Shown one piece after another: positions 6,880 to 64,000 of a stretch of DNA of 64,000 bases. Below the pieces are notes generated by a model that saw only the letters and a list, made by a program, of their open reading frames with translations, was not told the DNA's origin and did not search any database. Both the position numbers and the translations under genes were made by a program. Numbering within the stretch: position 1 is the stretch's first letter; each line of letters begins with the position of its first letter. This DNA comes from Gekko japonicus. Its lineage: Eukaryota. Location: contig NW_015172035.1 of NCBI RefSeq assembly GCF_001447785.1, positions 436,818 to 500,817 of the forward strand, given 5' to 3'.

Positions 6880-9800
6880 GTCATATACTGAAATTGTGAA
6901 GGTCCAGTCTCTTGTGCAGGTACTCGAACTTCCCTCTAGCAAGTAGCTTGGTGTGTATGTCAGGAACCATCTCCTCTGAAGGACAATGTTTGAGATCAAT
7001 CAGCCTTCTTGCTGCATCTCTCTCACAGAATTATATTTGACAGCAATATGCTTGTTTCTTGTTTTTATGCTTTCACTCTTGGATAGAGCTATGCATGCCT
7101 GATTGTCTTCAAATAAGGTTATTAGCTTAGGCCCATCTACACTAAAGTCTTTCAGTAGATAGTTAATCCACTCAAGTTCACTGCATGTATTTGAAGCAGA
7201 TACATATTCAGCCTCAGTAGCTGATTTGGCAACTAATGTTTGCTTTTGTTTAGTCCAACTGATCAGGCTCTCTCCACAGAAAAAACAGGTAGTCGCTCAT
7301 TGACCTATAGTCAGTTTTGTTTTCACCCCAGTCAGGCTTCATGTATCCAACTAGTCTTGTAAACAGAAAATGTTCTGCCTTTCCTTGTTAGACTTTTGAT
7401 TTTATAGCAGCATAGATAATTTTTCATTCCGCTCTGGCCATTTGTTCAAGTCCAGAAATGCTCTTTTAAAGTTTGCACACAAGATTCTCTTTACCTTTCT
7501 CTTAAAAATCATCTGGTTGTTCCATGTAGATCTCTTCAGACAAGACTCCATTGAAGAATGCCATTTAATGTCTAGGTGTTCAATGTGCATGCCTCTTGAT
7601 GCTGCTATACTTAGAAGAGTCCTGATGGAGGTGTACTTGACAACAGGTGCAAAAAGTTTCAGAAAAGTCAGTCCCGGATCTTTGTGTAAATCCTTTTGCC
7701 ACCAAATGTGCTTTTTCCCCCTCTCTCCACACTTCCATCAGTATTGTGCTTCACTTTGAATACCTATTTGTATCCAATTGCTTTTCTTCCAGGGGGTAAT
7801 TCAGTAAGTGTCTGTTTGATTCCTTTGCAAGGATTCAAAGTCTTCATCTGCTGCCTCTACCCATCTGTGTATTCCATGTGCAGGCAATTCAATCATTTAT
7901 TTCCAGCTTGAGGATTCATTCATAGGTTGCATATTTGCACAAAAAGAAAACCTCTGTGGTGGTACCCCTTTATTACTTCTTTGTGACTGTCTCACAGTAG
8001 TCTCTGCCTTCTTTGGCCCAGCTTCCCTTGCCTCCCTAAGAGGTTGATGAGCTTGTTATGGTCTAAGTTGTCTATACTGTCACATTATTGTATTCTTTTT
8101 CCCTCCTGAGTACTCTTGCCTCCCCTTCTGATTGTGGGGTCTCTTTTTGACCTTCCTGTTGATTGGCAGTCCTGGCATGTAGCCATTTGACCACATCAAT
8201 GAAAGAGACTTCTTCAGTTTCCTGGCTGGTTTGCACTGTGGACGCTATTTGTTAGAAGCTTGGAATACATTGCTCTCATCAATATGCACCACATTGCATA
8301 CTTTAACCAAAAGCATCTTAGGATTCATAACTCTATATCCTTTTCCACCTTGATCATATCCAACAAGGATTCCCACTTCAGCTCTGGGGTCCAACTTTCC
8401 CCTTCTTTCCTTGGGTATATGGGCATATGCTTTAGAGCCAAATACCTTAAAATGCTTTAAGCCTGGTTTCCTTTCAAATCACAGTTCAAATGGTGTTTGC
8501 CCTGTAACTTAAGAAGGAATTCTGTTGTGCAGGTAAACTGCTGTATTTATTGCTTCTGCTCAGCAAGGGTCAGGCAGACCAGCTTGTAAGAGTAGGCAAC
8601 ACACCATCTCTTGGAGGCTTCTATTAAGGTGCTCAGCTGAGCTATTTTGCTGAGGAGAATAAGCCACACTTGCATTATGTTCTATTCCCTCCTCCTCCAG
8701 GAATCTTTGGAACTCACTGCTAGAATATTCCTTCCCCCATTGTCTGTAAACAGGACCTCTGGACCTTTATTGAACTTATTTTTCACAGCAACATAATTCT
8801 TGAATTTCTCTAGCACCTTATCTTATCAGATAGACATAAATAAAATGAGTTCCAGCATCCACGAAAGTCAAAATGCATTTATTCCCACCAACTGAAGGAT
8901 GAAATCTGAGTAGACTTTATGTAACAGCTTCTCATTGTGCACAGCCTGTTACCCTTTATAACTCAGAGCAGTCCCCTTAGCCTTCAAGCATATTTCACAA
9001 CAAACTTGCATTTGATCACATTCAGTTATTTCAGTATCACACTCCTGCAACAGCTTCTGCACAGACTAAAGATTTCTGTGTCCCAGTCTCTTGTGCCATG
9101 CTAGGATGCAGTTAGAATGGGAGCATTTATTTGCCCTTGCATGATATACTGATTTATCAACATGCTTCAAGTAGTAACTCAGGATGAAAAATGATACACA
9201 CATCCTCTTTGATCAAAAACTGATTTTCCTTCCTCACAATCCTTTCAACAGACAACAAATTTTGATTAGCTTGTGGAGCAAAACACAGTCCTTTAAAATA
9301 ATTTAAATAATCTCTCCAGTAGCATTGAAGACTCTCAGTTTAACTGTCACAGTTCCTTCTACAGGCAATGGACTTCCATCTGCTTGAATCAAATCCTGCC
9401 CACTCTCTTAATTCAATTCCGCAAAGCAACTTTTATCATGGCAAAGGTGAAAGAAAGATCCAAAATCTAAATGCCAAAAATGCTTCACATTTGAGTCTTT
9501 ATCAGAAACAACATATATAAACTGCTGGGCACTGGTTCTTTCTTGTTTACATTTGGCTCTCTCTTTGCTTGGAACTACATTGTGTGTGAGAAGCATGTGC
9601 ATTCCTTTCCCCCTTGCTGCTCCATGCTTTCTTTATTTTACAAAATTTTGAATGTGCCCCTTCTGCTGGCAATTATAGCACACAACACTGACATTTCCAT
9701 GCTTCAGTCTTAAAACAGACATAGCTCCTGTTGCCTCTGTAACTGATCTCTTTGTACCCTCATCTCAGAGGTAACTCATAGTATAGTCAATATCTATTTG

Positions 9801-10330
9801 ATCGCTTGACTCCAAGACTGCAATCTGAATAGGAGTTTGGGAAACAGTTCAGAATTGTAGCATTGATTTCTCCTAGCATGAGCTCCACTCCTGCAGCCTG
9901 GAGTTTCGTTACTTGCTCTATTATGGTATCTGAATGTGCAGAAACTTCCCGTCCCTCAAGCAGCTTAAAATTATACAGTTTCCATCTTAAAAATTGCACA
10001 TACTTGTCCAATTTTCTTGAGTATTTCCCCGCCGGTTTAAACCAAAGCTCTTTAGCAGAATTACAGCTAGCCACAAGAGTCTTTATCAGTTATGGAGGTT
10101 AGTATTACAAAGCGTGCTTTTACATCAGCTTCTCGGAATTTATCCCTTTTTCTTGGATCCAGAGGGGGATCATGTTTAATAGCATGCAATGCTCTCTGAT
10201 GCTCCAGTGCACACAGAACTCTTGATTTCCACATTAGGTAGTTCTGGTCACTTAACTTTGGAATGTAGAGGGAGGGGGTATTTTCACTTACAGCTTGATC
10301 AGCTGTGTTGCTTTCATGATCAGTAGACAT
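6880..10330 (-). pseudogene. Copia gag-pol remnant (frameshifted, RT core deleted)
   Basis: Gag N-terminus PKLSDQNYLMWKSR (ORF 10067-10378), zinc knuckle CYNCQQKGH ~9650-9690, protease-like WHLDFGSFFHLCHD (ORF 9408-9602), RT IEHLDIK; only a short stretch separates ..NEKL from the RNase H start near 7350, so the YVDD region appears deleted. Confidence 0.85.
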
Positions 10331-39861: not shown

Positions 39862-40651
39862 TGAAGTTCACAGCAAACACAGAAACTGATTAGTTAGCCC
39901 AGACACCTTGTCTCCAGCTAAAATGGCTTATGCCGGAGTTCCCCTCTGCCAGACAACAATAGAGGATCCATTCCACAAGACTCGGGATGAGTCAACAACA
40001 CGAGGTCTCCAGCACGTACCTCCTGCCCCCGCCCAGGTTCCTCCCATCAGTTAATCAATAGATTGAATATTGACCCCATAGCCAATCCTTGACCTTCAGG
40101 GCAGGGCCATCTGGTAATCTGCTTGGGCCCACCCCTCGCCCCCTCGAAAGAGGGTTTAAAACATAGCGCACAGAGCAACCAAGAGAGCCTTCCCTTTTAC
40201 CAACGACCTCCCTACTTCTGCTGACCCTCTCTTGTCCAGCTCCCTGTACCAACTCCGTCACTCGCTTTGTCTTAGTCTGCAGCTAAGACCACTACACGTG
40301 TTATCAGTTGGTCTGTTACACGTGCTTCCACCATTTCCTCCCCTTCCTCCCCACCTCCCAACTGGAAGTTTTAGGAGCTGCACCTCGCCAAAGGTAAATA
40401 TAATTCCCTACCAACGACCACCTGCTAATGCAACCGTGCTGTCCCAAATCTTTCTATTTTACTTAGTTCTTGTATGCCTGTATGTTATTGTGTGTTTTGA
40501 ATGAATCTCCAGTAAACTAAAGTTAATTTTACTTCAGTCTCTGTTTCTTCGTTGAAGCGTATCGGCACAGCCCATCCTTCGTAGACATAGACCTGAATCC
40601 CGATTAATAAACTGTTCCAATTGTCTCTCCTAAAGAGCAATTCGGCTAACA
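39862..40651 (+). mobile_element. ERV-like solo LTR with non-matching flanks
   Basis: tgaag...ctaaca; tttaaaa ~40154, aaggtaaat ~40391, AGTAAA ~40511; flanks aaaca vs agagc; right side abuts Gypsy pol mid-ORF. Confidence 0.7.
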
Positions 40652-43600
40652 AGAGCTTCCAGGACACACTCTCGCAGATTGGGAGGCACCACCACCCGGT
40701 TCCCCCATAACAAGCAGCCTTTTGTCACTGAAAGTTCAGTTTGCCTTGTATGGTACGGCTTAAACTCCTGGTCCACTCTACCTGCCGGCCACCCCCTCCA
40801 AACCCAGTTAAGGACACTGGAGAGGGTAGAGTCCTTAGCTGACGCAGCAGCAATGTCTGAAAAGTGGACCGGAGGTTGAGGCAGTTCGTCAATTGCCAGC
40901 ACTTCAAATGCTGGCACCGGATCGATGTCCATTTGTGGCAGACGGCAGCATCTAAGAGCGTCTGCATGTCCAATTGCCTTGCCAGGACGGTGCTCGAGGT
41001 CAAAGTCATAGGATGCCAGAAAAACAGCCCACCAGAATATGTGGGCTGAAATAACTGTCGACGTTTGGCAGACTGGCCCAGCAGCGGTTTGTGGTCCGTG
41101 ACAAGGAGGAACCGGCAGCCATAAACAAAGTCATGGAATTTTTAAATTCCCGCCACCAAAGCCAGGCCCTCCTTGTCGATCCGGGCATAGTTCTCTGCAG
41201 CTGTTAAAGACCGCGAGTAGTAGGCGATTGGAGCCTCTCGCCCATCCGCCATGACGTGTCTCAAAACTGCGCCAACCCCGCACGGGGAACTGTTGGCCGC
41301 CAAAACCAACAGTTTGTCCTCATCAAAATGCGTTAATACAGTATTTGAGGACAACAGCTCTTTTACAGCACAGAATGCCTTTTCTTGTCTTGGCCCCCAT
41401 GTCCATTCCACCCCTTTGTGCAGCAGGGCATGCAATGGTTCGGCTATGGAGGCTTTGTGAGGCAAAAACGAGTGATAGAAATTCACAATGCCTAGGAATG
41501 ACTGCAGCTCTTTTTTGGAAGTAGGCCGGGGGGCGTTTTGGATAGCCGAGAACTTATCCGCCGTGGGGTGCACACCCTGTTCATCAATCAGGTCAGGAAA
41601 TGAAGAAATTCAACCTCAGATACCCCGATACGACACTTTGACTTTTTTACTCTGAGGCCTGCCTCTTTAAAACACTCCAGTACAGACCTGAGGCGATTAA
41701 GTAACTCTGACTCATTTGACCCTGCAATGAGCACATCATCGAAGTGCAGGACGACACCTGGCAACCCTCGTAGGAGACCTTCCATAAGACCCTGGAATAT
41801 ACCAGGGGCGACATTTACCCCAAACTGTAAACGTTTTACTCGGAATGCACCCCTATGAGTAACAATCGTTTGGGCTTCAGCAGCTTGAGCGTCCACAGGC
41901 AACTGCTGATAAACCTGTGCTAGATCCAGTTTCACGAATACCTTCCTCCCCCAAGGGAAGCCAACAGGTGACTGATTACAGGTACCAGGTAAGAATGTTA
42001 TTGCAGAGCCTTATTGATCGTACACTTGTAATCAGCACATATACGTACAGTTCCATCAGATTTTACAGGATTTACAATCGGGGTCTCCCATTTACCGTAT
42101 GGCACAGGTTCAAGAATACCTTGGATTATGAGTTTATCCAGTTCCGCCTCTATTTTAGCCTTCATGGCTATTGGAACCTTCCTATACCTTAGGCAGATAG
42201 GCAACACAGAGGAATCCAGGTCGAACCTCACAGGCAGACCTGTATACTGACCCAGACCTTCCCCCCAAACCTCTAGGAACTCGTCATAAATGCAATTCCC
42301 TTTATTTGCACACACCTTGTTAACACCGGTTACAGCAATACCCAGAGGTTGGAAGCAATCCAAGCCCAGCAAACTGGCCCAGTTACCCTCAGCAACCAAG
42401 AGGGACAACTGTACCTTCATTTGGGGAACCTTGAACTCCACCTCAAAACTGGCCTGGCCAGCTAATGGAATGTGCTGACCCTGGAAATCGGAGAGGTGCG
42501 CCGTGGACGGGGTCAAGCGTTGGCGGCTCCATCGTGGGAACAAACGTTGCCAAGTCTGCAATGAAATGATGGTCAGCGCGGAACCAGAGTTGACCTCCAT
42601 GTCGCAGGGGACTCCGTCTAGGCAAACGGTGACCAGGATCTTTTTGTTGATGCTTGCTCCAGTGTTCAGGACGGTAGCAGTACAGCTGCAGGAGTCAGTC
42701 TGGTGGCAGTCGGTGGACCGTGTGCCCTCTGTGCCTTAAACCTTAGGCCTTGCAGTAGGAGATGACGGTGGTGATTTCTTCTTGGCCCGGCAGACCCCGG
42801 CCAGATAACCTCGCTTCCCACAGGCACAACAGACGAAATCTCACGACAAACAGAGGTCTCGCTCATGACTGCCGCAGCAGCCAGTGCAAGTGTGCCATGG
42901 TGCAGGTTTCAGTAGGGTCTGCTTCTGATGTGTCGCTTGTGTGTGATGGATGTCCTCTGTCTCTCCCGCAAAACTGCTGGTCGATTGGTGGTGTACAGCC
43001 TGGTCCTTCCCAGCCTGGACATGGTGCTGATGGACCTCTCACATCAAACTCTTGGCCGCTTTGGCGGTGACAGCCTCCATGTAAGCCACTTCGTAGGTGA
43101 TCGCAGTTTTTGCGAACAGTCGTTGTTGAAGCCTCTCATCATGAAGGCCGCATAAGAGACGGTTGAGTAATGCTTCTTCAAGGTTGGCGAAGTTGCAGGG
43201 CCGGGCTGCCTTCTGAAGGGCGGTCACGTACTCAGCGATGGACTCTGTTGGAGCTGATTACAGGTACCGGGTAAGAATGTTATTGCAAAGCCTTATTTAT
43301 CGTACACTTGTAATCAGCACATATACGTACAGTTCCATCAGATTTTACAGGATTTACAATCGGGGTCTCCCATTTACCGTATGGCACAGGTTCAAGAATA
43401 CCTTGGATTATGAGTTTATCCAGTTCCGCCTCTATTTTAGCCTTCATGGCTATTGGAACCTTCCTATACCTTAGGCAGATAGGCAACACAGAGGAATCCA
43501 GGTCGAACCTCACAGGCAGACCTGTATACTGACCCAGACCTTCCCCCCAAACCTCTAGGAACTCGTCATAAATGCAATTCCCTTTATTTGCACACACCTT

Positions 43601-44840
43601 GTTAACACCGGTTACAGCAATACCCAGAGGTTGGAAGCAATCCAAGCCCAGCAAACTGGCCCAGTTACCCTCAGCAACCAAGAGGGACAACTGTACCTTG
43701 CGACCCTTGAACTCCACCTCAAAACTGGCCTGGCCAGCTAATGGAATGTGCCGACCCTGGAAATCGGAGAGGTGCGCCGTGGACAGGGTCAAGCGTTGGC
43801 GGCTCCGTCGTGGGAACAAATGTTGCCAAGTCTGCAATGAAATGATGGTCAGCGCGGAACCAGAGTTGACCTCCATGTCACAGAGGACTCTGTCTAGGTG
43901 AACAGTGACCAGGATCTTTTTGTTGATGCTTGTTCCAGTGTTCAGGACGGTAGTGGTACAGCTGCAGGAGTCGGTCTGGTGGCAGTCGGCAGACTGTGTG
44001 CCCTCTGTGCCTTAAACCTTAGGCCTTGCAGTAGGAGATGACGGTGGTGATTCTTGGCCCGGCAGACCCTGGCCAGATGACCTCGCTTCCCGCAGGCATG
44101 ACAGACGAAATCTTGCGCCAAACAGAGGTCTCACTCATGACTGCCGCAGCAGCCAGCGCAAGTGTGCCATGGAGCAGGTTTCAGTAGGGACCGCTTCTGA
44201 CGTGTTGCTTGTGTGCATGGATGTCCTCTGTCTCTCCCTCAGAACTGCTGGTCAATTGGTGGTGTACAGCCTGGTCCTTCCCAGCCTGGACATGGTGCTG
44301 ACGGACCTCTCGCGTCAACCTCTCGGCCACTTCGGTGGTGACAGCCTCCACGTAAGCCACTTTGTAGGTGATCGCAGTTTTTGCGAACAGTCATTGTTGA
44401 AGCCTCTCATCATGAAGGCTGCATACAAGATGGTTGAGTAATGCTTCTTCAAGGTTGGCGAAGTTGCAGGGCTGGGCTGCCTTCCGCAGGGCAGTCACAT
44501 ACTCAGCGATGGACTCGGTTGGGCCCTGGCTTCGCTTGTAGAATGTTTGTCGACAAGCTATTTGGGATGGCTGTGGCGAGAAGTGAGCCTTCAGCTTGTC
44601 TGTGATGACCTTCAAGGTCGCCATCTGGATGCTGGTCAGTGCAACCAGGGACCGGCCGACGTCGAAGATAGTTTTGCCACATGAGCTGAGCAGCGTTGCC
44701 TTCTTCCGTGCCTCATCTATGATCTGGTTGCCTTGCAAATGGAACTCAAACCTGGACAGGTACAAGTCCCAGTCTTCCATTTCTGGTTCGAATGCCTCGA
44801 ATGCCGGGTTGACGGCCATCTCAGTGGTTGGTGCAGCCAC
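40652..44840 (-). pseudogene. Gypsy A gag-protease-RT-RNase H remnant; integrase core missing
   Basis: Gag FEAFEPEMEDWDLYLSRFEFHL; protease MEVNSGSALTII; RT KLDLAQVYQQL, RLQFGVNVAPGIFQ, HFDDVLI; RNase H LAANSSPCGVGAVL; stops at GCLLWGNRVVVP..VLEAL. Confidence 0.9.
41972..44522. repeat. ~1.28 kb tandem duplication inside Gypsy A (41972-43253, 43254-44522)
   Basis: Near-identical ORFs 41998-42600 and 43280-43876; both units begin ctgattacaggtacc. Confidence 0.93.
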
Positions 44841-46239
44841 AACGACTAGTGGTGACTCAGCTGGCTCGGCCGGGTGTGTGTCTCCATTCTCGCATCGGTT
44901 CAGTGGGGCTGCCTACCCGCTCTTGGATCCCATCCTTGTCGCCAGTTGTTAAGTATGCAACTCAACAATGAAGTAAGTAACAAAGTGAATCAGCTTTTAT
45001 TGAGAACGAGAACTTCCAAAGATCACACAGCATCAGATGACACAACAACAATAGTGGAGCATAGCTCCTTTTAAACTCTCCTGGGCTGGGGTAGCCACGC
45101 CCTCACACAGTTAACATCCAATCGCATTATATGGATAACGACCAATCATTTGTCTTCCCCCCAGCACAGACTCTTACATTTCATTGGTTGCTGTACATGC
45201 TTCAGCCAATGGTGTTGTCCCAGATTAGAATCCAGCTGAGGTTTCAAGCTTAACATTACAAGTTAATGGCAAGACACAACAACCTGAGCTTAAGGTATCC
45301 AAGGAGCTGCAGATTCAATTCCCTTCCTACTAAGGGGATGTCAAGAGCAGGCATTGGAACCTGACTCAGCATGCCTGTCAGGTGATGCTTATACTAGGAG
45401 GCTGTGCCTAAGCAGGCTATAAAAACAGGAAGAGGAAACAGCAGTTGTCGGGCTTCACTGGGGCTGCTGGATTTGACGTTGCTGGAAGCTGTGGTTCCTA
45501 GGAAGCCCCTAGCAACTGAAGGGATGTGAGGATCTTTACATTGCTGTTTTGTGTTCTGCAATTAAAGTATGTCTGTACCACAGTGCCTTGCCTCGCTGAG
45601 CATTCTTTGTCTGCCCAAATCCTCCAGAAAGAACCTTTTCCTCAGGCAAGAAAATGGCCTCTGGCACAACAGTAACCCTAGCTAGAAGACATGGATGGCA
45701 ATGTGTCAAGTGAGGCGGTGCATTTGGGAAGGGCTTTGTCACTTTTAAATTAAGTGGAAAAAAAGACCACAATCCCAGGCATCCCATTTACAAATGGACA
45801 GCTCGCTTTTCATGATATGTCAGAGTTGGCCAGCTTCACAGAATCGATTCCCACTGAACTTATTCTGAGTAAGCATACTTTTGTTTGGGTTGTAAGAAGT
45901 AAGTCTTACTGATTTTGTCTGAAAATGTCAGATCTGTTCCCGTCCCCTAGACAAAGATTCTTACGTGCAGGAATTATAACAAACATATTTGGAATTACAA
46001 TACTTACCTATATAATAAAGAAATGAATCAACAAAGCCAGAACAATACCAAGGTATAACTTGTTACATGACAGATGCAAACAAAAGACAGAACACCATTG
46101 GTGGTCACATACACCTCTTAGCTCAAACTGGTTCAACACATAATTTAAAATCTATGACATATGATGGACAATGATACTTCTCTCACACAGTATTGGGAGG
46201 CCCACAGAGAGCCTCCTAACCTTAAATGACTTCTCATCC

Positions 46240-47241
46240 ACAACAATGCCCTTCCTGACATGGACTCTAGGACCAGGGCTTGCAACAATCCATGATGCCA
46301 ACTCTGTCACCGTATCTGACAACACAATCACCGGACCTAATGGCACCAGCCATACCATCTCAGGCTCATTCACTTGCTCATCTTCCAACAATATGTATGT
46401 TATCAAATGCCAGCTTTGCCTTTCTACTCTCTTCATCAGACAAGTAGGTTAGTCCCTATGTAAAAGAATAAATGGACATACGTCTGACATAAAAACCTAC
46501 AACACTCAAAAACCAGTGGGGGAACATTTTAATCTTCCAAGTCATTCCACTGTTGACCAAAGAGTCCTCAAACAGAGAAGCTTCAAGGGGAGATCCCAAT
46601 GTGAGATTGCTGAACTTGAGTTCATTCATAAGTTCAGAACAATGGACCCCCAGGACTGAACAGGAACATAAGATTCTTATCTCACTACCTATGCTAATTT
46701 TCTGCCCCCAAGCATTCTTCCTCTGCTGTAATCAAGCTGATTACAGTGTGCATGGTAGCTCTACATCCTGAGTTTCCTCTTTGCAACACTCCTTGCACCT
46801 TTTGATTGGGATATAAGGACTCACGGGTCTCCATTTTGACTCTTATCTGATGAAGGGAGCTTTGATTCTTGAATGATCCTACCCTGAAAATCTCGTTGGT
46901 CTCTAAGGTGCTTTGTTGTGGTTGTTGTTCAGTCGCACAGTCGAGTCCAACTCTTCGCGACCTCATGGACCAGATCACGCCAGGCCCTCCTGTCTTCCGC
47001 TATCCTCTGAAGTTTGCTCAATTTCATGTTCGTTGCATCTATGACACTGTCTAACCATCTCATCCTTTGCCGTCCCCGTCTTCTTTGACCTTCAATCTTT
47101 CCCAGCATCAGGGTCTTCTCCAGTGAGTGCTCCCTTCTCATTTGGTGGCCAAAGTATTTGAGCTTCAGTTTCATTATCTGGCCTTCCAGGGAACAGTCAG
47201 GGTTGATTTCTATAAGGTACTACTGGACTCAAATCTAGCTG
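46240..47241 (+). mobile_element. Penelope-like element 3' fragment (GIY-YIG endonuclease plus terminal repeat)
   Basis: ISGSFTCSSSNNMYVIKCQLC..IRQVG..KRINGH..KPVGEHFNLP; decayed ctgatga core ~46847; interrupted by BovB. Confidence 0.85.
46913..47208 (-). mobile_element. RTE-BovB 3' fragment
   Basis: ORF 46929-47174 KLKYFGHQMRREHSLEKTLMLGKIEG; (aac)n tail; TSD tctctaaggtgct / tctataaggtact. Confidence 0.9.
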
Positions 47242-50530: not shown

Positions 50531-50649
50531 AATTTCCATTACATTATAATCTACTATTCTAATCTATTATTCCAAATAAGAGGTAAAATAAAATGGCCTT
50601 TCTGGGGGATTGGTGAGAATGCAGCAGTAAGGGCTGAACGAGGTTAGCA

Positions 50650-52280
50650 TATGTACTGAGATAAGAAACCAATATCCCTTTTAAGTCCTTGGGATTCCAT
50701 TCTTCTGGGCGTTGCAGTAACTTGCAACTCAGCAATTTCCCTTTCTAGTCTGTTCCTGAAGTTTCTGTGCAACAAAACAGCTACCTTAAGGTCACCCATT
50801 GAATGTCCTGGAAGGCTGACATGCTCTCCTACAGGTTTCTTAGTCTTGTGATTCTTGGTGTCAAATTTGTGTCCATTTATCCTCTGGCGTAGGGTTTGAC
50901 CTCTTTAATCTATGTAGAGAACCAAAAAGGCATTGTTAACATTTAATGGCATGTACAATGTTAGAAGATGAGCATGTGAATAAGACTGAGATGATGTAGT
51001 TAATGTTGTTAGGTCCAGTGATCGTGTTGTCTGGGTGTATGTTAGCATCTGGGTTCATTGCAAGCTCTGATACCAGTGCCTATGTTCAAATTAGATGTTG
51101 CATTATTGTGGGTGAGGAGTTGTTTGAGATTGGGGGGCTGTCTGTGCATAAGAAAAGGTTTGCCCCCCCCATACTTGTGAAAGAGGACTGTCATCCAGTA
51201 GAGATTTAAGTCACTGATAATGCATTGAACTGTTTTGAGTTGAGAGCTGTATGTGTCAACTGGTGGTGTTCTGTTGTTGTCTCTTTGGGGCTTGTCTTGC
51301 AACAGGTTTTCTCTGGGTACCATTCTGGCTTTTTTAATCTGTTTCTTGACTTCATCAGGTGGATACCTTAGTTCCAAAAAGGTATGTTGTATATCCCTTA
51401 AGTGAGAATCTCTGTCTGCAGGATTGGAGCAGGTGTAGTTGTAGTGTACAACCTGGCTGTATATGATAGATCATTTTGTATGCTTAGAATGGTAGCTGGA
51501 GGCATGTAGATATGTTTGTCAGTTAGTAGGTTTCTGATATGAGGTGGTATTTATGCGCCCATTGTGTATTTTTACAGTAGTGTCCAGAAAATGTATTTCT
51601 TGCATAAATTGGTTCATTGTCAGGTTGATGGTGGGGTGAAAGTCGTTGAATGCCTGGTGGAATATGTCCAGAGCTTCTTTGCCATGTGTCCACACAATAA
51701 AATGTCATTAATATATTGCAGGTATAAGAGAGGTATGAGTGGGTGGGAGTTTAGGAAGCATTGCTCCAAGTCATCCCTAGAGAAGTTAGCATAGTGTGGG
51801 GCCATGTGGGTGCCCATGGCTGCACCATTGATCTGAAGGAACAAGTTATCAGCAGATCGGAAGTGGTTATGGGTGAGAACAAAATGGCACAGTTTGGTGG
51901 CAAAGTCAGCTGTGGTGTTGTCAGAAATCATATTCCTTATGGCTTGTAATCCATCTTTGTGTGGGGTATTGGTATACAAAGATTCCACATCCATGGTGGT
52001 TAAAATAGTATTCTCTGGAAGGTTGTTCGAAGATTTATTTTCATCAGAAAGTCTGTGGTGTTCCAAACATAACTAGGAATGTTGGTGGCATAGGGTCTTA
52101 GAACAGAGGTCATATATCCAGATACCCCCATGGTGATAGTGCCTATGTCTGAGACAATGGGGGCATCCTGGGTTTCTGGGTTTGTATATTTTGGGTAGAA
52201 GATAAAAGATACCTGGTTGATGTTCCTGTGGTGTGTCTGAAAGGATTTGGTCCTGAATGTGCAGGGGTAATTCCTTTCAC
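50650..52280 (-). mobile_element. Degenerate Penelope-like element (RT plus GIY-YIG)
   Basis: TMDVESLYTNTPH, QINGAAMGTHMAPHYAN, LQYINDI (ORF 51620-52066); YPPDEVKKQI..RACNEPRC (51042-51377); nuclease region ~50760-50990. Confidence 0.9.
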
Positions 52281-52308
52281 AAACACTCTTTGGTTCCTCA
52301 TCTTCTTG

Positions 52309-52460
52309 GAGAGGAGTGACAAGTGGAATGCCTCAAGGATCTGTCCTGGGACCTGTTTTGCTCAACATCTTTATCAATGATTTGGATGACGGGGTAGAGG
52401 GAATGCTTATTAAATTTGCAGATGATACTAAATTGGGAGGGGTAGCAAATATGGTAGAGT
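52309..52460 (+). mobile_element. CR1 RT fragment
   Basis: [44 protein letters not shown]. Confidence 0.9.
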
Positions 52461-53401
52461 CTTCAGAAGAAGACATACTTTGCATATGTATGTTAGATAA
52501 CTCAGTGTTCACCAGCAGGAGGGTTGAGTGTTTGACATGGGGGGGGGCATCTGATATCAGTGATGTTGCTGACGTGACTACATCACTTTCAAGTATAACT
52601 CAGGAGTGACAATGGATAGTTCTAGGAATTACTGAAAAATCCTAGAGCTAACCATTTTAACTTCCTGGAAGTGACATACCGGCACAGAGGCTGGCAGCTT
52701 TTCCCCCTCCCTACTTTTCTTTTTCTACTTTTTTTTTACTTTTTAAAACTTTTCTCTCACTGCCTTTTGGAGCAGCAGTGGACAACAGCAGCAATTGGCG
52801 GGAGGCCTCCCTGTATAGTGAGGGACCCAGCAACCTTAAATGTTCATCAGGTCTTGATAATATAGACTTCTGCATGGCTGTCTCGCTTCCCCATACATTA
52901 ATGTCAGCAGTGCTGTTAGATGCTTCTGTTTGCTGAATGCACTCTGCAGAGCAAAAAATTCAGATTATAAAATCTGTTCTGCAGCAATTAGAAGGCAATA
53001 ATGCTTAACTCTGCACCAGGAAAAGCTTCATCTGACTGTTTCTGCTGCACACCAAGCCTTTGCTAAAGGGTTATCAGCAGAGCAAGCCAATTTTTTTTTT
53101 TTTAACTTGATGGCAACTTAAGTTCAAAAGTACGCTCATGACAGGTGATGAGGAAGCTGGGCCAGCATCCCACATAAATCACTTACACCTCCGAACATGC
53201 TCCAGAATCCTTTGCAGAGAACAGGGATTCTGAGCCAAGGGTTCCCTTACACACTAGATATAAGATTGCCAACTCCAGCTTGGGAAATTCATGGAGATTT
53301 GAGGGCAGAGCCTGGGGAGAGTGGAGTTTGGGGAGAGGAGGAAGCTCAGTATGGACGTGATGCCATAAAATCTGCCCTCTGAAGCTGCTGCTTTCTCCAG
53401 C

Positions 53402-55471
53402 TGCCAGATGTTTCCAAACACACTTGGAAGGATGGCATCCTCTGCCATATTTGGGACTGGGTGGGGAGGGGCTGGCCCACAGGGCATGTGGGCCCGGATT
53501 TCGCAGCATTCTCTTCCTGCTGGGAGGAACTGTCCACCCACAAAGGCTACATCTTGTGGGGCAGCCAGGTAGTCATCTCTAGCCCCCTGCGTGGATGCAT
53601 ACTTGCAGCGCTGTACAAAACCCACCCGGGAATCATGCAAATTAAAGCCTTGGCACGCAGCTACGTATGGTGTATGGGCATGGACGAGGAGATAGAGGAC
53701 CTGGTCAAACACTGCCAAACATGCCAGGAAACCCAAACGGCCCCTCCCAGGGCTCCAGTGCAACAGTGGGAATCCATGCACAAGCCATGGGACCGTCTCC
53801 ACCTGGACTTTGTGGGCCCGTTCCAGGGACAGACTTCCTTTATTCTGGTGGATTCCTATTCTAAGTGGCTAGCGGTGGTCCCTGTCTCCTCTATGTCATC
53901 TAGAGCCGCGATCAAAGCCATGTGGAAGATCTTCAGCACCCATGGCATCCCTGACACCCTGCTGTCAGACAATGGAACTGCATGTACATCAGTGGAATTC
54001 CTGAAGTTTGTGCAGTATTATGGGATTAGACTTGTCTGCTCCGCTCCTTTCCACCCAGCAACCAATGGACAGGTGGAGCAGATGGTACGAACTACCAAGG
54101 AAGCACTGCGCCAGATTGTCCAGGGGGACTGGGACTACTGGCTAGCTGCCTTCTTGTTCAGCCAACAGACAACCCTGTACACCACCACAGGACGCTGCCT
54201 TGCTGAACTATTAATGGGCTGGTGACTGACGACCAGGATGGACCGGCTTCACGCGGACCAGGCACCCGACCACAACCCACACCCGGTAAACCAGGAGGCA
54301 CCCTGGGGGTTATATCTGGAAGATCCAATGCATGCCCGAAACTACGCCCAGGGCAAACCCTGGATCCCTGCCCAAGTGGTTAGAGTAATGGGACCACTCT
54401 CATACAAGGTCTCGACGGAAGAGAGCCAGCTCATCCGGAGGCACATAGATCAACTGTGCTGGCGTTTGCTGTCCATTGACGACCGAGATGTATGAGACAC
54501 CGAGGACAGCAAGGAAGAGCCAGACCTGGAAGAACCCGTGCTGAGGCCAGTAGAGCCTGACACCACTCCAGCACCTGCTCCAAGTTCTGCTCCAGGGCTC
54601 AGCACCGGTCTGGCCCAAGAACTCAGGACCACACCAACCGCCGCCTCCGAGCTACCACACCCTGGGCCAACCGCACCGACCTCACCTCATTGGAACCACG
54701 CCACTCCACGAGAGTGTCAGCATATTGGAAGTGCCAATAATAACACAATCCAGAGTTGGCTAGTGCTGAACTATTTACAGTGATTTATTTACAGCAACTA
54801 TATACATACAGTCCTTTAGCACTTGTAGCACCCAATTCACCAGGCTTACTGACAAAGTGCTTCGCATAGCATTCAATCCACAAGAGTGAACAATAGCATA
54901 CAGACTGTACTCCATATATACATCTGAGCACCAATCAGAACGAAGTGCTGACTCATGGTGACAGTAGTCAGGATGATACAATCTTAAGACCTGGTGACAT
55001 GTCACATGACACACTAACTATCACCTCAGATCAAGATGATCTAATAGACTACTTCTTACTTGGCTGTCATCTTGCCTGTCATACCTTATAGTATGCCGTC
55101 AGAGAGAACGGTGGTGCCCTGAGTACTTGCGGGACTTTGTATGCTAGTACTTCGGAACTAAGGGGGGAGGGGTGTTATGTATTAAGATGGCTGCGACTGC
55201 ATGCGCTCGGCCATGCAGTCTACCAGACTCATGGACCTTCGGGTCTAGAACAATAGCCCCCGCGGATCCTTGTGAGAACCAATGGGAGTGCTAGGATCCT
55301 GAAGAGAACCTATCATTACCGGGGCCATGTATATAGAACATATCACGGGAATTGGGTTTGTGTTGGGTGTGAGTGTGTGCACCAATATAAGCCAGCCTCG
55401 CACTGGCTAAGTTGTTTTTTGTTGTTCCGATGTAATTAATTATGCTACGCCTGGAACTCCACTACTTTTCA
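53402..55471 (+). mobile_element. Gypsy B, inverted 3' half (integrase, PPT, 3' LTR 55173-55471)
   Basis: ORF 53461-54225 with HHCC remnant, PWDRLHLDFVGP, SDNG, PFHPATNGQVE; PPT aaggggggagggg 55160-55172; LTR tgtt..ttca followed by gtctt. Confidence 0.92.
54715..55101 (-). mobile_element. Solo LTR inserted into the Gypsy B pol C-terminus
   Basis: tgtca...gtca termini; exact 5 bp TSD gagag at 54710-54714 and 55102-55106; aataaa on minus. Confidence 0.8.
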
Positions 55472-55845
55472 GTCTTCCAGAAGACCAACAATGGAAGGAG
55501 GCAGAGTTGATGGGTTCTCGTGGGACAAGGAATTTCAAAATGTGGGAACTGCAGCTGGAAAAAAGCCAGCACCCAAGACCAGCAATCAGAGAAGAGCAGT
55601 GCCTGTTAATTTTAGCATATGGGCAGTGCCCTGGTCCATGGCCAGTTAGGGCTTCCGTATATCAGGGATATACTACAATCACAATTTGTTACTTCTTGCT
55701 CCCAGGAAGTCAGGGGTGCAACCCAATGCCAGCCCCATTTTAAAGGGCATTAAGCACAGAATGTTGGCATTAATAAGTCTTAAGATCATGGCCTGAGGTC
55801 TGTTCTTCCCCACACACACTTTTATTTTTTTAAAAAAAACGACCC

Positions 55846-55940
55846 ATCCTGATGAAAAGTTCAGAAGAACAGAAAAGCTTGCACACAACATTGTGTCATT
55901 TGGGTTGTTCCTAATAAAAAGGGATTGTGTTGATTGTGGT
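55846..55940 (+). mobile_element. Penelope-like terminal repeat fragment
   Basis: cctgatga-aaagttc..gaac-agaaaagctt, then aataaa; decayed hammerhead-like layout. Confidence 0.45.
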
Positions 55941-57344
55941 CTAAGAGACTGAGTAAGATCGAACCCATTCTACGGAGTCCCAGGCTTAACCTCCACAGTG
56001 TTGCTGGATCCACTCAGGTCAATATAAATCACATCTGAAAGCCCCGGATAAAGTCACTTTGCCGACAACTTTGTGCTAATCACTTTATCGCCATAGAGCT
56101 CTGCTCTTCATTCCAAATGGGAAATTAGATTTACCCTTTTGAAGTTTATTAATATCTTTAATCAAAGTCGGTTGGAGTTGTTATAAAGAGACAAATGTTT
56201 TCATTATTGCCAAGGCTAAATTAAACTAAAACGGTTGTGCTGCCTTGGAGAGAACAACTTCCTGTCTCACGCCAGGCACAATATTGTAGGGTGTCAGCAT
56301 GGGATTTTAATGCAGGATTGGTTTACTGTGAAAGTGGAATGATCTGAGCAAATGAACAAAAAAAGAGATCTTTGTTCCTTGCCAGGAAATATTACATTTA
56401 TAGCAGAAGAACTGAACATGATAATGCTATGCAAATTGTGAGCTCCTGTATTGTTAAGAACTCTGCAGGGGAGGGGGATTTCCTGAGCCAGTTCATGGCA
56501 TTTTATTAAACCATGAAAGATAACCCATCATCTTCCCCTGTGTCACCCTTAGCTAGGTCCAAATTGAGCCCCTATGATGCATCAATGTCATTTTCATTGC
56601 CCCACACCAAATTGCATGGGTGGCTTGACTAGAGAACTGACCCTAGGTTTTTTTCTTCTTCTCACCTTTGCAGGGCAAGCCACCAACCATCCCTCTTGTA
56701 AATTTTTAAAGGTAGACGAGCCACATCCCCTGTTGCATCTGTTCACTTTAAACACTTTTAGTCATACCAACTTTGGCATGCTAGGAATAGATGACCTTTC
56801 AACATTTAACAGACGTGCAGGCAAGGAAATTTTGGCAGGCTTGGCTTTGTAAACCCCTACAGCACTATGACATGACAAGGTGAAATTCCCTCTTTTGCGG
56901 AGCTATTAAAGGCCAGGTGCTCTAATAATGGCAGGCTGACATCTTTGCTTGATATGGAATATGTTTTAAGATGAAGTTGAAACACCTCTACTGTTAAATC
57001 CAGACACTTTATTTCAACATATTTTTTTTAAAGTCGGTAGATTTCAAACTTTTATTTCGCCAGGTGAACAGTTCAACTTATCTATTACATTTTATCGTGT
57101 TATTAAGGACTGATTTTACAATTGACATTACAGCAATGGTATGGCACAATTTCTGGGCCAAACCCAGAAGTGATGTCATACTGCTTTATGGTAACCACAG
57201 AGTTTTCATTGAATCCTAGAGTGGCATGAGATCACTTTCAGGTTCAGGACAGAAAAGGTGTTAAAATGGTGCCACAATGACATCCTCCATGTGCCTGTTT
57301 CCCAAACAAACGTAGGTTACCATTGGCTGGCAACCCTACTGTGA

Positions 57345-57648
57345 AAAAGAAGAAGACGGCGAAGAGGAGGGGGGATTGGATTTATACCCCACCCTTCACT
57401 ACCTGAATGAGTCTCAGAGTGGTTTACAATGCCTTTCCCTTCCCCTCCCCACAACAGACACCCTGTGACTGTGAGGTAGGTAGGGCTGAGAGCTCTCTCT
57501 CAAGAACTGTCCTTGAGAGAACAGCTCTGAAAGAACTTATGACTGACCCAAGGTCACACAAGCAGCTGCATCTGGAAGAGTGGGGAATCAAACTTGGTTC
57601 TCCCAGATTAGAGTCCACAGTCTTAACCACTACACCGAACTGGCTCTC
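57345..57648 (-). mobile_element. Squam3 SINE
   Basis: Homolog of 13744-14015 in reverse. Confidence 0.9.
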
Positions 57649-57954
57649 AGAGAAAGAATGATTGTTCAAAGGTCACCTACAGAGCAATCCTATCTATTCA
57701 AAAGCCTACTCAGATCTGTTCAATAGGGCTTATTTTCAGGAATGTGTTCATAGGATTTCACTACCATTGCAGTGTTGGGTCTCCCAGTCCCATTCCAACC
57801 ACTACATCATACTGGTTCAAAAAACAAAAATAAGGTATTTTGCTGCCTACATAAAAACTAGTCATTTGTTTACAAAAAAACACCTGTCTGGAACACGAAA
57901 GCATGAACAAATTACAGAGCATTTGTTTATTTCCATTTTAGGCATATGGGGGCC

Positions 57955-60900
57955 TAATACTGCACAAACTTCAGGAATTCCACTGATGTAAATGCAGTTC
58001 CATTTTCTGATACCAAGATGTCAGGGATGCCATGGGTGCTGAAGATCTTCCACATGGCTTTGATCGCGGCTCTAGATGACATAGAGGAGACAGGGATCAC
58101 CTCTAGCCACTTAGAGTAGGAATCCACCAGAATAAAGGAAATCTGTCCCTGGAATGGGCCCGCAAAGTCCAGGTGGAGACGGTCCCATGGCTTGTGCATG
58201 GATTCCCACTGTTGCACTGGAGCCCTGGGAGGGGCCGCCTGGGTTTCCTGACATGTTTGGCAGTGTTTGACCAGGTCTTCTATCTCCTCGTAGCTGTGTG
58301 CCAAGGCTTTCATACGCATGATTCTCGGGTGGGTTTTGTACAGCGCGGCAAGTATGTGTCCATGCAGGGGGCTAGAGATGACTACCTGGCTGCCCCACAA
58401 GATGTAGCCTTTGTGGGTGGACAAAGGCTACACCTCCCGGCAGGAAGAGAATGCTGCAAACTCTGGGCCCACATGTCCTGTGGGCCAGCCCATCCCCACC
58501 CAGTCCCAAACATGGCAGAGGATGCCATCCTTTCCGGTGTGTTTGGAAATGTCCGGCACCTGTACCGGCCAGTTGGGCAGGTATTCCAGCAGTAGGATCC
58601 GGTGTGCAGGGGCCGGGTCACAGATGGGCAGCGGAAGGCAGCTGAGGGCATTGGCATGTCCCATCCCCTTGCTCGGCCAGTGCAGCAGGGTGTACTGGTA
58701 GCTGGCGAGAAAGATAGACCACTGCAGCACCCTGGGAGACAATATCTGGGACATCTGGTGGTCTGGGGCCAGGACGCCTATCAGCGGTTTGTGATCCATG
58801 AGGACCGTGAAGGGGCAGCCATACAGGTAGTCGTGGAACTTGCGCACCCCTGCCACAATCGCCAGGGCTTCCTTGTCTATCTGAGCGTAGTTTCACTCCA
58901 CTACCGACAAGGTGCATGAGTAATACGTTACCGGGACCTCACAGTCACCAGCCAGTCTGTGACCCAGGACCGCCCCCACCCCATAGGGCAAGGCATCGCA
59001 GGTGAGCACCATGGAAAGGGACTCATCAAAATGGGCCAGGACAGCATTGGAAGTCAGTAAGTCTTTCATGGCCCGGAACACCACGGCCTGAGGTTTCCCC
59101 CAGTTCCACTGTGCATGTTTGTCCAAGAGATAGTGTAGGGGCTCGGCCACAGCTGCTTTGTGGGGGAGGAACGAGTGGTAGAAGTTGAGCAGGCTGAGGA
59201 AAGACTGTAGCTCTGGTTTTGAGGAGGGTGTAGGTGCATTGATGATGGCCGCTATTTTGTCCGGTGTGGGGTGGATTCCACGGGCGTCAACTTGGAATCC
59301 CAGGAACTTGATGCTGGGGACCCCAAAGAGACACTTTTCCCTCTTTACTTTAAGGCCGGCTACATTGAAGCACTGTAGGATGGCTCTAAGACAGTCGAAG
59401 AAGGCTTCGGGAGATGGTGCCGCAATCAACATGTCATTGAAGAAGGGTTGTACTCCAGGGATTCCTTTCAGCAAACAGTCTATTAAATTCTGGAAAATCC
59501 CCGGAGCTACACTAACCCCAAACTGCAGACGTTTGACCTTAAATGCTCCCTGGTGTGTTACGATTGTCTGGGCGTATGCTGTGGCATCATCTACTGACAG
59601 CTGCTGGTAGGCTTATGCCAAGTCCAGTTTGCCAAATATTTTAGCCCCAGCCAGGGATTCTAGGACATTGCTCACCACTGGAATGGGATATGTGTGATCT
59701 TGGAGGGCCTTATTGATAGTGTATTTGTAGTCTGCACAGATACTGACGTCCCTATTGGGTTTGACTGGGGTTACGAGAGGGGTCTCCCATTTTACATGGG
59801 GCACTGGCTCCAGTACTCCCTGGCTGATTAGACGGTTGAGTTCTGCCTTGATCTTGGGCCGGAGTGCAAACGGGGACCACCAGGCTTTCAGGCATAGGGG
59901 ATGCACAGCCGGATCAAGGTCTAGGGTGACTGGTGGCTCCGTATAGTGGCCAAGTGATCTGTCAAATACAGCTGGGAACTCATCGCACATGTTACTAAAG
60001 TTGCCCGATGATATATTTTGTATTCTGGTGATGGCAAGGCCCAATGCATCAAACCAGGCTAATCCCAGTAAGCTAGTGAGGCGGTCCTTAACTATGACCA
60101 GTTCCAAGGGCCCTTTGAAGTCTTTGTATTTTACACAGAACTGGCCCACCCCTTTAATGGTGACCAGGTTCTTTTGGAAGTCCTTTAGTGTGAGCCCAGT
60201 GTCTTCCAGTGGGGGTCCCCCCTTAGGGCAAAGCATGCAAAGGGTTTCCTCCGAGATTATCGAGAGGGAGGACCCAGTGTCCAGTTCCATCATGCATGGG
60301 GATCCCTCTATTAAGACAGTCACTTTAATCTTATTGGGGGACCCCCGGTGCAAGAAATGTACCTGGTTTCTATGTACCGAGGTGTTGTGGAGTTCCACTG
60401 TTTCTTGATGGGTGGTGCCATGGCGTTGTTGTCTCTTGGAGCAGCAGGCCTGGGCAATGTGGTCCTGTTTTCCTCAGGCACGGCAGTCAGCATCCCGAAA
60501 ATGGCAGGATCTCCTTTCATGTATCTTCCCACAGCTTGCGCAGGTCGCTGGGGTGCTGGAGGACGCCGCAGACAGTGATGGGCGAGATTCACGGTGAGGG
60601 GCCCGACGGACCTGGAGCACCTCATCTTTATCCAAGGAGGCAGGGGTACCTCCTGGCGATACCTGGTGGGTCATGGACGATGGTGGACAATCCCGATGTG
60701 ACCTCTCGAATGTGTTGGCGGTCTGGAGCACTGTCTTGAGTTTCAGGTCGCTAGTGCCCAGGAGCTTTTGGCGCAGCTTGGGATTGTGGATTCCCCAGAC
60801 AAACTGTGTGGGGATTATCTCTTCGACCCCCGGCAGCTCGCAGTCTATGGCGAGCTGGCGTAGCTCAGCCATGTAGATGGTGGGCCCTTCACCTCCTTTT

Positions 60901-61674
60901 TGTGTTCGCACACATAAATCCATTTGTCTCGCCATTTATGTGGGCTTTGGGGTGAAGTACTCGTTCAGGACCTTGAGGAGGTTCTCATATGTTGTTTCTT
61001 CCAATTTGGCCAGTGCTATGAGGCACTTGGCTAGCCGGATGGTGGCTACCCCACACGAGCTTATGAGCAGGGCCCGTTTCTTACCGGCATCGGTGATGTC
61101 GTGAAATGTGAGGTAGTTCATCAGCTGGTCTACCCATGCTTCCCAGAACTCTGGATGCATGTAGTCAAACACCGTGATGATTCCCGGAGCTGCAGCCATG
61201 ACTCGAGGGTGGTGTGGGGAGCAATGATCGGAGGAATGGGGCGCAGTGCGGTGCTGCTGGGGACTGATGTGAGGCATGGTGTCTTATTGATCGGTGCTCG
61301 GTGCCAGTCCTGGGTTGGAGTCAGGCTTGCTCATCAGGATCCCATCCTCGTCGCCAGTGAAAAGTAGTGGAGTGCCAGGCGTAGCATAGTGAAATCAACT
61401 CTCATTTATTAATTACATTGGAATGATAAAAAACAACTTAGCCGGTGCGAGGCCGGCTTATATTGGTGCACACACTCACACCCAACACACCCCCAATTCC
61501 CATGATAGGTTCTATATACATGGCCCCGGTAACGATAGGTTCTCTTCAGGATCCTAGCACTCCCATTGGTTCTCGCAAGGATCTGTGGGGGCTATTGTTC
61601 AGACCCTAAGGTCCATGAGTCTGGTAGACTGCATGGCCGGCCGCACGTGGTCGCAGCCATCTTAATACATAACA
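57955..61674 (-). mobile_element. Gypsy B, 5' part (5' LTR 61358-61674, PBS, gag, PR, RT, RH, partial IN)
   Basis: 18 nt PBS exactly complementary to tRNA-Ser(GCT) 3' end at 61339-61356; gag WEAWVDQLMNYL; protease MELDTGSSLSII; RT KLDLA, FFNDMLI; RH LTCDALPYGVGAVL; flank aagac is the reverse complement of gtctt. Confidence 0.93.
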
Positions 61675-61901
61675 AAGACAGTGAGAAACAGTTGTTTTCA
61701 AGAGTTCCTTGGGGTGGGGTGAACCCAGTTCTAATCATTTTAGTGCCACCCTCTTGGGTTTGTTTCTCCTTTTGCTGCAGTTTTGGGTTTTATGAAATTG
61801 TTAAAACAATGACTGAACTAGTAGTTCTTTTATTAGCTTTGTTTTTACTGCTGTTTATGAGAATTTCAAATGGGGTGAAATTCACTAATTTTAGGATGCA
61901 C

Positions 61902-61952
61902 AGGGTTGGACTAGATGACACTGGAGGTCCCTTCTAATTCTAGGATTCTATT
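61902..61952 (+). mobile_element. CR1 3' terminus fragment
   Basis: gggttggactagatgac..ggtcccttc..attctaggattctatt. Confidence 0.7.
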
Positions 61953-62204
61953 ATTTTAATTGTTTGAAACTGATTTTAATGTTGAGCTTTTATTAATTTT
62001 GTCAATTTTTATATAATGTTGTACTTTCATTAACTTTTATAAGCCACCCAGGAAAACTCAGTAGAAGGGTTGGGTGTATCTATACTGAATCAATAAGCCA
62101 TATTTAAAAAATAGACATGGATGGCTGACTCATTCATTTACTCAGGTATCAAAACTGATAAAGAGTATTTCTACAACCGACACAAAACTAGAGTTACTAT
62201 TTGT

Positions 62205-62807
62205 ATAATAATAATAATAATAATAATATTAATAATAATTTTCAATTTATTGATCGCTCAATCCGGCAGAGCTGCTGGCTCTGAGCGATTTACAGTTACA
62301 TGGTTTCACACAAGGGACTAATAATTTCATAGGGGTAAGGGAGGACAACATATAATTCTTTTAAATCGCACACATTTTGCAGCCGACAGGGATTTTTGTT
62401 CAGCTGTAGGCTTCAGACATGTTCCGGAGGCATTCACTTCCGGCTTGGCTTGATGACATTGGTTCTTCCTGGGCTGCTTTGAATCGTAGCTCCACACTGC
62501 CACCGCCTGGCCGGATTGGCCCATTACAGGCTTCTTAATGCCGAAGAGGTCTTTTTATCAGGTTTCCAAGCTTACGAGCTGGACATTCCATTCGCCGGCT
62601 TACACCTCCTCTACCGGGGTTTAGTGTGCCCACCCTCTCTAAGGAGTGGTACCCATTTTATCTACTCGCCGAAGCTTTCAAACCGCTGGGTGGACAGCGA
62701 GCTGGGGGCAAGGCTGGTAGCTCACACCAGCGTGGGCTAGAACTGACAGCAACTCTGTTCAGTTCAGATGTTAACCAGAGGATAAATCCTCTGTGCCACC
62801 GCTCCCC
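62205..62807 (-). mobile_element. ~600 bp tRNA-headed SINE with Sauria-like body and L2-type tail
   Basis: A-box-like tggcacagagg, B-box-like gttctagccc; 62646-62707 aligns with Sauria SINE 4202-4263; 3' stem atcgctca..tgagcgat, aataaa, (tta)n. Confidence 0.7.
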
Positions 62808-64000
62808 TTCTATATATATATATGTATAGTCCAATCATAGACTAGAACTGTCTGAAAATTGCCTCTGAGCCAAAACCTGCAATGTGAGGTATCTCATTAC
62901 AAAATCTATCACTGTCCAGCACATTTCTATCTAACATTTCCTTGAAGAAAATGAGGTGGCATATAATGTTCTCACCTCCACCCCTTTATCCTCACAACAA
63001 CTCTATGACACAAGTTAGACTGAAAGAGAGAGGCTGGAGCAAGGACACCCACACACTAGTCCAAAAGTACAATCCTATGCCAAGCTGAAACCAATGGCCT
63101 TCACCTGGAGTAACTCTGCATACAAAGTAACCCTATAACCACTACACAACACTTTCATTCTTGAAAGCTTACATTATTTATGCATTGTGGGAATCTTGGC
63201 CCAGGGCAAGAGGTTGGCCATCACGAATTCCACTAAAGGACGAGATTGTGTCGGAGACTGAAAGAGACAGGAAACCTGTGTAGAGATTTAAGGAGGGATG
63301 TCACATCATCTGATATATGAGAGGAGAATGGTTTCAGAGGTGGAATTCTGGGTGGAAAAGAGAAGACAAAAGGCACAGAGAAAAGGAATTATTCAAAGTG
63401 GGAGGTGAAGATCAGAGATTGAACCTGAGTCTTAGCTGACAGGAGAGAAGGGCTATCAACATTGTACAGATTGAAGTGATATGACTTAGAGCCAGACTGG
63501 ATATACGAAGCAAAGGAGGAGGAGGAATTGGACATAAATCCAATGCTTCATGTCTGGATGAGGGGGAAGTGTAATATGGAGAGTAATCAAAAAGGGGATA
63601 GGATGGGAGGACAGACGAGAGAGTCAGTCTTGGGCATATTGATTTTAGCTATGTCCTTGTTTATCTTTCTTCTCTGAGGAGATCCTTGATGGTTTCATTA
63701 CTATATTTGATGTTTCTTCAGAAGAGTAGAAAAATTTAGGCATCTCAGCCATGAAATTTAGGCAAAGAACCAGAGCTGAAATTTAGGCAAAGATTTTTTT
63801 AATTATTTGATTCTCCAGAGCTATGTATTTCTACATGCTGATTAGGAAAACAATAGAGGCTTTATTAATAACTCAATGGTGCTGCTTTTTGTGAAAAAAA
63901 CATGCCAAACAAAGACTGTTTGTCTCAAAAGCATGCAAAATGCACTTCACATCCCCCCCATCCAGAAATTATTCCCTGGCAAAGAAGCTCTGAGTAACCA

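Follow-up and report, generated by a model that had tools for sequence, protein, structure and literature searches.

Structure of the split element

The window analyzed here is a 64,000-nucleotide stretch comprising positions 436,818 to 500,817 of contig NW_015172035.1 in the Gekko japonicus assembly GCF_001447785.1. The assembly contains 2.49 Gb in 191,500 contigs and, judging from this fragmentation, is presumably of short-read origin; its repeat content appears reptilian. The window is free of N from 10.5 kb to its end, so none occurs at either of the two joins described below. Self-comparison revealed two inverted pairs, one between 53398-54020 and 58562-57955 and the other between 55173-55471 and 61674-61358. 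The features of this region are listed in Table 1. The coordinates of the LTRs, of the two copies of a duplicated stretch (D+ and D-) and of the joins, as proposed by an earlier reading made from the letters alone (hereafter, the sequence-only reading), agreed with the sequence.

Table 1. Features of the split element and of the adjoining DNA, in window coordinates
Feature	Coordinates	Strand	Description
MITE fragment	53261-53400	+	first ~140 bp only
Left join	53398-53401		3-4 bp microhomology, MITE versus element
D+	53402-54020	+	duplicated 0.6-kb stretch: integrase start (zinc finger, part of core)
Remaining integrase and 3' untranslated region	54021-55159	+	one in-frame stop
Nested solo LTR	54716-55101		386 bp, younger other family; own 5-bp TSD at 54711-54715 and 55102-55106
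Polypurine tract	55160-55172	+	directly before 3' LTR
3' LTR	55173-55471	+	19-bp deletion relative to 5' LTR
TSD copy 1	55472-55476	+	
Host DNA between the halves	55477-57954		2.5 kb (2478 bp)
Old repeats in host segment	near 55680-55940, 57120-57280, 57680-57770		
SINE in host segment	57343-57648		
D-	57955-58558	-	second duplicate copy; abrupt end at right join 57954/57955
5' half	58559-61357	-	gag, protease, RT, RNase H in one frame
5' LTR	61358-61674	-	
TSD copy 2	61675-61679	-	

On the minus half, one gag-pol frame extends from 61283 to 57955 and is interrupted by five in-frame stops, counting D-; Pfam detected RT and RNase H there, as well as the beginning of the integrase core. The plus half, beginning at 53402, carries the integrase zinc finger and core, one in-frame stop, the polypurine tract and the 3' LTR. 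Read in element-strand order, the Pfam matches were RVT_1, RT_RNaseH, rve and Integrase_H2C2, corresponding to RT-RNase H-integrase. Gag and protease gave no Pfam match and were assigned from motif and position, no env was seen in the split element, and a motif following the 5' LTR in the 5' half resembles a primer-binding site. With its LTR ends (TG...CA), polypurine tract, 5-bp target-site duplication (TSD) and pol order, the element has the features of a Ty3/Gypsy LTR retrotransposon, albeit one that is dead and split. Family copies were colinear over the same parts, and no piece of the split element was present in the two 10-kb flanks of the window.

The presumed inverted block measures 4553 bp, and the spacer between the D copies 3934 bp. 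D+ and D- differed at 39 of 598 aligned sites, and D- has a 21-bp deletion and six extra bases; the deletion, which the sequence-only reading had described as private to the minus copy, was present on alignment with D+. The nested solo LTR, for whose family genome copies were 96-97% alike, had been overlooked by that reading. It is a later insertion than the element and may have preceded or followed the rearrangement.

Host segment, neighboring elements and family copies

Approximately 55945-57115 of the host segment matched nothing else when searched against the genome, and the end of the segment had no ortholog in datasets X4, X5 and X18 at 85%. Rfam returned no matches in 52000-64000, the host segment included. 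The sequence-only reading placed a candidate enhancer in this segment; the observations bearing on it are the single-copy status and the absence of an Rfam match. Of the ORFs in the window, 105 were analyzed with Pfam: five from the second element described below and, from the 283 lying outside the Gypsy elements, the 100 longest. They gave transposon domains only and no host exon, although short exons would escape this screen. Word shares of 0.08-0.20 of the host segment in organisms B-G, which possibly stem from the SINE, were rejected as evidence of conservation. The locus is likely without function.

Several other mobile elements surround the locus. A second Gypsy element, distantly related to the split one (66-71% alike in pol), occupies 40630-44910 on the minus strand and contains a 1.28-kb tandem duplication (41972-43251 / 43254-44522, 94% identity), of whose 62 differences 45 lie in CpG context. 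Copia-type gag and RT fragments and two other RT fragments were located by Pfam at 7405-10089, 51045-52072 and 52271-52606; these last two, which matched Pfam RVT_1 only, we take to be Penelope-like and CR1-like. An inverted 66% match links 45949-46697 to 50644-51417.

The family of the split element is large, with 1721 first-look candidates in the genome, and truncated or internally deleted copies are frequent. Other rearranged copies also occur. L018:3672-5254 is a 0.8-kb tandem duplication of nearly the same integrase stretch as D (93% alike, with a 190-bp identical run). Short inverted pieces were found in L020:3291-3421 (113 bp, at the truncated end) and L009:3988-4040 (a 53-bp internal inversion). 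Internal deletions in L008:4427-4550, L015:2180-1962, L007 and L010 joined pol directly to an LTR or 5' region, and L007 additionally has a 3' LTR with a new 5' region behind it, the arrangement of a tandem element.

Probable common origin of the two halves

The 5-mer at 55472-55476 is identical to the element-strand 5-mer at 61675-61679, a match with a chance of 0.001. Seven further full-length copies could be read at both outer flanks; each had its own 5-bp TSD, and all of these differed (in two copies the TSD was read by eye, 2-3 nt beyond the point where the BLAST match stopped, and L010 was unreadable). The LTR pair of the element was monophyletic with UFBoot values of 96 among 25 sequences and 97 among 48; the margin in distance was thin, with 7.0% within the pair versus 8.0-8.5% to the nearest others. 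Given the shared TSD and the sister LTRs, the halves likely derive from one insertion.

The D copies gave the same picture of close kinship. In a tree of 23 sequences drawn from the 20 best-scoring loci, they paired with a UFBoot value of 100; a 90% coverage filter kept the partly deleted copy L033 out of this tree. In this set the K2P distance between them was 0.073, compared with at least 0.114 to the other 21 sequences. D+ and D- were mutually best genome matches among the best 40 candidates per search, and a 20-mer common to both occurred only at these two places in 2.49 Gb. Over 208 sites, L033 was nearer to D+ (4.3%) than D- is (5.8%); nevertheless, at 15 of the 429 sites covered by L033, D+ and D- share the rarer letter, and in terms of shared changes they are therefore still sisters. 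Two peptides singled out as unusual by the sequence-only reading, LAALYKTHP and WESMHKPW, were absent from the 20 other loci, whereas a third, KAMWKIF, was found in 12 of them and is not unusual. The proposal that both halves represent one Gypsy insertion was supported by the TSD match, the sister LTRs and the sister D copies. Within the assembly, the duplication lies at both ends of the inverted block as a pair of sisters with shared derived changes, and the two halves, the duplicate and the cut MITE were confirmed as real.

Breakpoints

The MITE agreed with its family copies up to 53400, and complete copies run about 80 bp further, in accordance with the truncation near 53400 proposed by the sequence-only reading. 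Searches with three real copies recovered no MITE remainder in 52-64 kb, the far side of the host segment included; the left join lacks at least about 80 bp. Because DNA was lost at this break, the structure is best read as a duplication-inversion-deletion, and this deletion at the second break had gone unnoticed in the sequence-only reading. The left join falls on CAG(G), of which CAG is common to MITE and element; most copies of both read CAGG, and the window reads CAGC. The right join adjoins single-copy DNA, its ancestral partner is absent, and microhomology is unreadable there.

Complete MITE copies have terminal inverted repeats, and a 7-of-8 match was seen by eye in the flanks of one of three printed copies, which hints at the hAT type named by the sequence-only reading. 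A 26-bp stretch at 57315-57340 looks like the two termini of this MITE family set nearly side by side. A breakpoint hotspot, considered on the grounds of an apparent common end point of L008 and D-, was rejected, since L008 extends about eight bases further.

Timing of the duplication

Raw divergence, which the sequence-only reading had proposed as an age check, ended in a tie without information on order. The K2P distances of 0.069 ± 0.011 for D and 0.075 ± 0.017 for the LTRs were equal within error. At CpG sites D looked younger (14/82 sites differing versus 14/48 in the LTRs), and at non-CpG sites it looked older (27/516 versus 7/250, p=0.14), neither difference being significant.

CpG decay was more informative. 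CpG-prone sites decayed in both copies were compared with those decayed in one copy, and the LTR pair served as the baseline because its members were identical at insertion and decayed independently afterwards. The D pair showed 20 sites decayed in both copies and 10 in one, versus three and 13 in the element's own LTR pair (Fisher p=0.0045); with a stricter site cut-off, the D pair showed 13 and seven (p=0.03 versus its own LTRs). Eight other LTR pairs, when pooled, had 29 sites decayed in both and 116 in one, and none of 171 unrelated D pairs reached the ratio of D. The tandem duplicate of L018, used as a positive control, gave 20 and five. The LTR pair of L012 had more shared decay than other pairs (11 in both, 11 in one), which may reflect LTR-LTR gene conversion.

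Because shared CpG decay in D exceeds that in the element's own LTRs, these data support a duplication younger than the insertion, consistent with the earlier claim that the element had begun to decay by then. The shared CpG decays were scattered along D, with 13 of 20 at codon positions 1-2, as were eight of the 10 shared rare non-CpG changes, and together they have the pattern of neutral decay in common after insertion. The rare non-CpG changes were discarded as timing evidence, being uninformative alone (10/516 in D versus 3/250 in the LTRs, p=0.56). A two-epoch fit placed the duplication at about 0.44 of the element age, that is, very roughly half, although the non-CpG sites point to an older event. 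Some of the shared decay in D could have arisen by gene conversion, and two alleles of one element would likewise be expected to share post-insertion decay.

Orientation of the spacer and independent reads

D+ and D- are inverted repeats flanking the 3.9-kb spacer at 54021-57954. With the spacer turned around, the locus would consist of a dead but colinear element and, at the far break, a stray D, while both outer joins would be unchanged, an ambiguity that the sequence-only reading had overlooked. Since the outer joins are independent of orientation, the inversion is tested only by reads spanning a whole D copy, and phase across D is all that separates a one-step inversion from a capture of D with a subsequent flip or from an assembler phase switch inside the identical runs of 75-78 bp. 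The longest of the identical runs between D+ and D- (78, 75 and 60 bp) was unremarkable (p=0.24), and the second and third were slightly more clumped than expected (p about 0.02).

The region 52400-62600 was checked against X1 contigs and against raw-read runs X22-X24, which were sampled at about 0.7x each and swamped by a high-copy SINE; among the SINE-swamped matches listed for this region, neither break was bridged. In X1, D- was joined to the 5' half over 246 bp and the 3' LTR to its flank over 55444-56300, both with no differences, the latter with only 28 bases inside the LTR. The 5' LTR-to-flank stretch 61609-61931 had 13 differences in a 325-bp contig, some letters of which also occurred in X22 reads. 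The joins supported by X1 are expected under either arrangement of the spacer.

In X2 (57655-58030), two versions of 57770-57950 had zero and 12 differences (12/181 sites), and a D- piece at 57975-58030 (56 bp) had none. No X2 contig crossed 57951-57954, though both haplotypes reach 57950, and the depth in bin 57941-57953 reflects coverage to 57950 only. Contig builders may prune short links into deep repeats, and such a gap alone is no proof; the X2 pattern leans slightly against the right join. Relative raw-read depth was 1.34 for D+, 1.03 for D- and 1.03 for the rest of the element, values that rest on few reads per bin with possible double counting.

Haplotypes at the locus are 4-7% apart, and the X2 pair is as divergent as D+ and D-. 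Versions from other individuals departed from the window by ~7% (X2, 57770-57950) and ~4% (X1, 61609-61931) beside stretches with zero differences. These divergent versions may represent deep haplotypes or introgression, or else a duplicate that the assembly lacks.

Origin of the rearrangement

The explanation that we favor, and regard as reasonably probable, is a single Ty3/Gypsy insertion later split by one repair event that produced the inversion, the 0.6-kb duplication and the deletion. The inserted element would have decayed for very roughly half of its age before a break or a stalled fork occurred. Synthesis would then have proceeded to the end of D, changed strands by a switch to the far end of the host segment and returned from there along the 3' LTR and integrase until it reached the start of D, with rejoining within the MITE at 3-4 shared bases. 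Staggered cuts followed by fill-in and end joining would give the same product. Thereafter, D+ and D- would have decayed independently. The proposed order of events is suggested by the TSD, the sisterhood of the LTRs and of D, the shared CpG decay and the MITE cut at microhomology, and the ancestral orientation of the segment is what the TSD and the colinear family copies would imply. The inversion by staggered breaks or template switching put forward in the sequence-only reading stands as the best reading of the locus, but its mechanism is an interpretation, since the same product is expected from capture followed by a flip or from an assembler error.

Foremost among the alternatives, though unlikely, is a two-step history in which a 0.6-kb copy of the nearby integrase filled a break in the MITE, and the inverted repeats so formed later recombined and turned the 3.9-kb spacer around, perhaps repeatedly. 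The two states would differ only in the orientation of 54021-57954 with identical outer joins, the identical runs are slightly clumped as gene conversion would leave them, and inversions between inverted repeats are described as recurrent in humans in the available part of one study (PMC3961182). This history, however, requires two rare events, the shared decays were not enriched in the identical runs (6/19 sites inside, 14/52 outside), and the longest run is not unusual. An assembly artefact ranks next and is also doubtful: D+ and D- would be alleles of a colinear element joined head to head, or a phase switch within an identical run would have flipped the spacer. Consistent with such an error are the fragmentation into 191,500 contigs, the X2 versions that differ about as much as D+ and D- with neither crossing the join, the 13 differences in X1 with letters partly found in X22, the decay that alleles would also have in common and the runs of 75-78 bp available for a switch. 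Against it stand the absence of N at both joins, the microhomology at the left join, and the finding of no second version of the host segment, the segment end or the 5' LTR in the assembly. False duplications derived from alleles are, moreover, usually tandem rather than inverted, and the depths of D+ and D- are not half of that of the element, a weak argument with few reads per bin.

We consider it very improbable that the rearrangement dates from integration itself, for example through two cDNA ends of two molecules at one site joined to a second break. The equal raw divergence of D and the LTRs would fit such an origin, but D+ and D- share CpG decay and rare first- and second-position changes, the LTR pair shows no excess of shared CpG decay, and the idea could be rescued only by later gene conversion along all of D. 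Least credible is the chance meeting, face to face, of two independent sister insertions that were each truncated later. The size of the family and the frequency of truncated and internally deleted copies would supply the material, yet this scenario demands a 1-in-1000 TSD coincidence as well as mutually closest copies 4 kb apart with complementary truncations and shared decay.

Relation to known rearrangements

Under the favored one-step repair explanation, the locus is a new instance of a small rearrangement of a well-described class. In the portion of a human survey available to us, CNV-flanked inversions made up 77.2% of complex variants, with MMBIR/FoSTeS or repair of simultaneous breaks named as the mechanism (Collins et al., 2017; PMC5338099). 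As the locus is read here, it resembles the dupINVdel variants described in that portion: an inverted segment of which one break carries a duplication while the other has lost DNA. As presented there, those variants are human and resolved at about 5 kb and above, whereas the present case is old, spans 4.5 kb and lies in a reptile-like genome; unlike the cases described there, one of its breaks falls in a decayed retrotransposon whose TSD preserves the former order.

According to the available part of a Drosophila study, inverted duplicates occur at the breakpoints of 17 of 29 inversions, frequently with the sequence of one breakpoint alone duplicated, and have a mean identity of about 88% (Ranz et al., 2007; PMC1885836). 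This locus likewise carries inverted duplicates at its two breakpoints, as do the staggered-break inversions described in that text. The inversions covered there are chromosome-scale with polarity set by outgroups and mostly non-repetitive duplicates, whereas here the duplicate is transposon sequence and the order comes from the TSD. Recurrence of inversions between inverted repeats in humans is reported in the available part of Aguado et al. (2014; PMC3961182), and this locus shares with the cases treated there a segment between inverted repeats whose orientation is untypable by simple junction tests. In comparison with them, the D repeats are 0.6 kb long and about 93% alike, and toggling of the present segment is hypothetical. 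It is quite improbable that the integrase-derived 0.6-kb inverted repeat makes the 3.9 kb an invertible cassette, toggling or segregating, that is tied to the haplotypes 4-7% apart; if true, the 3.9 kb might include a conserved non-coding element.

As one small, old rearrangement with no host exon found nearby, the locus carries little biological weight. Its value for method is modest: a split TSD reveals the former order of sequences where no outgroup is at hand, and shared CpG decay, with the element's own LTRs as the yardstick, places a duplication after the insertion where raw divergence fails. The locus would gain importance should the two orientations be found to segregate or the flipped host DNA turn out to be regulatory.
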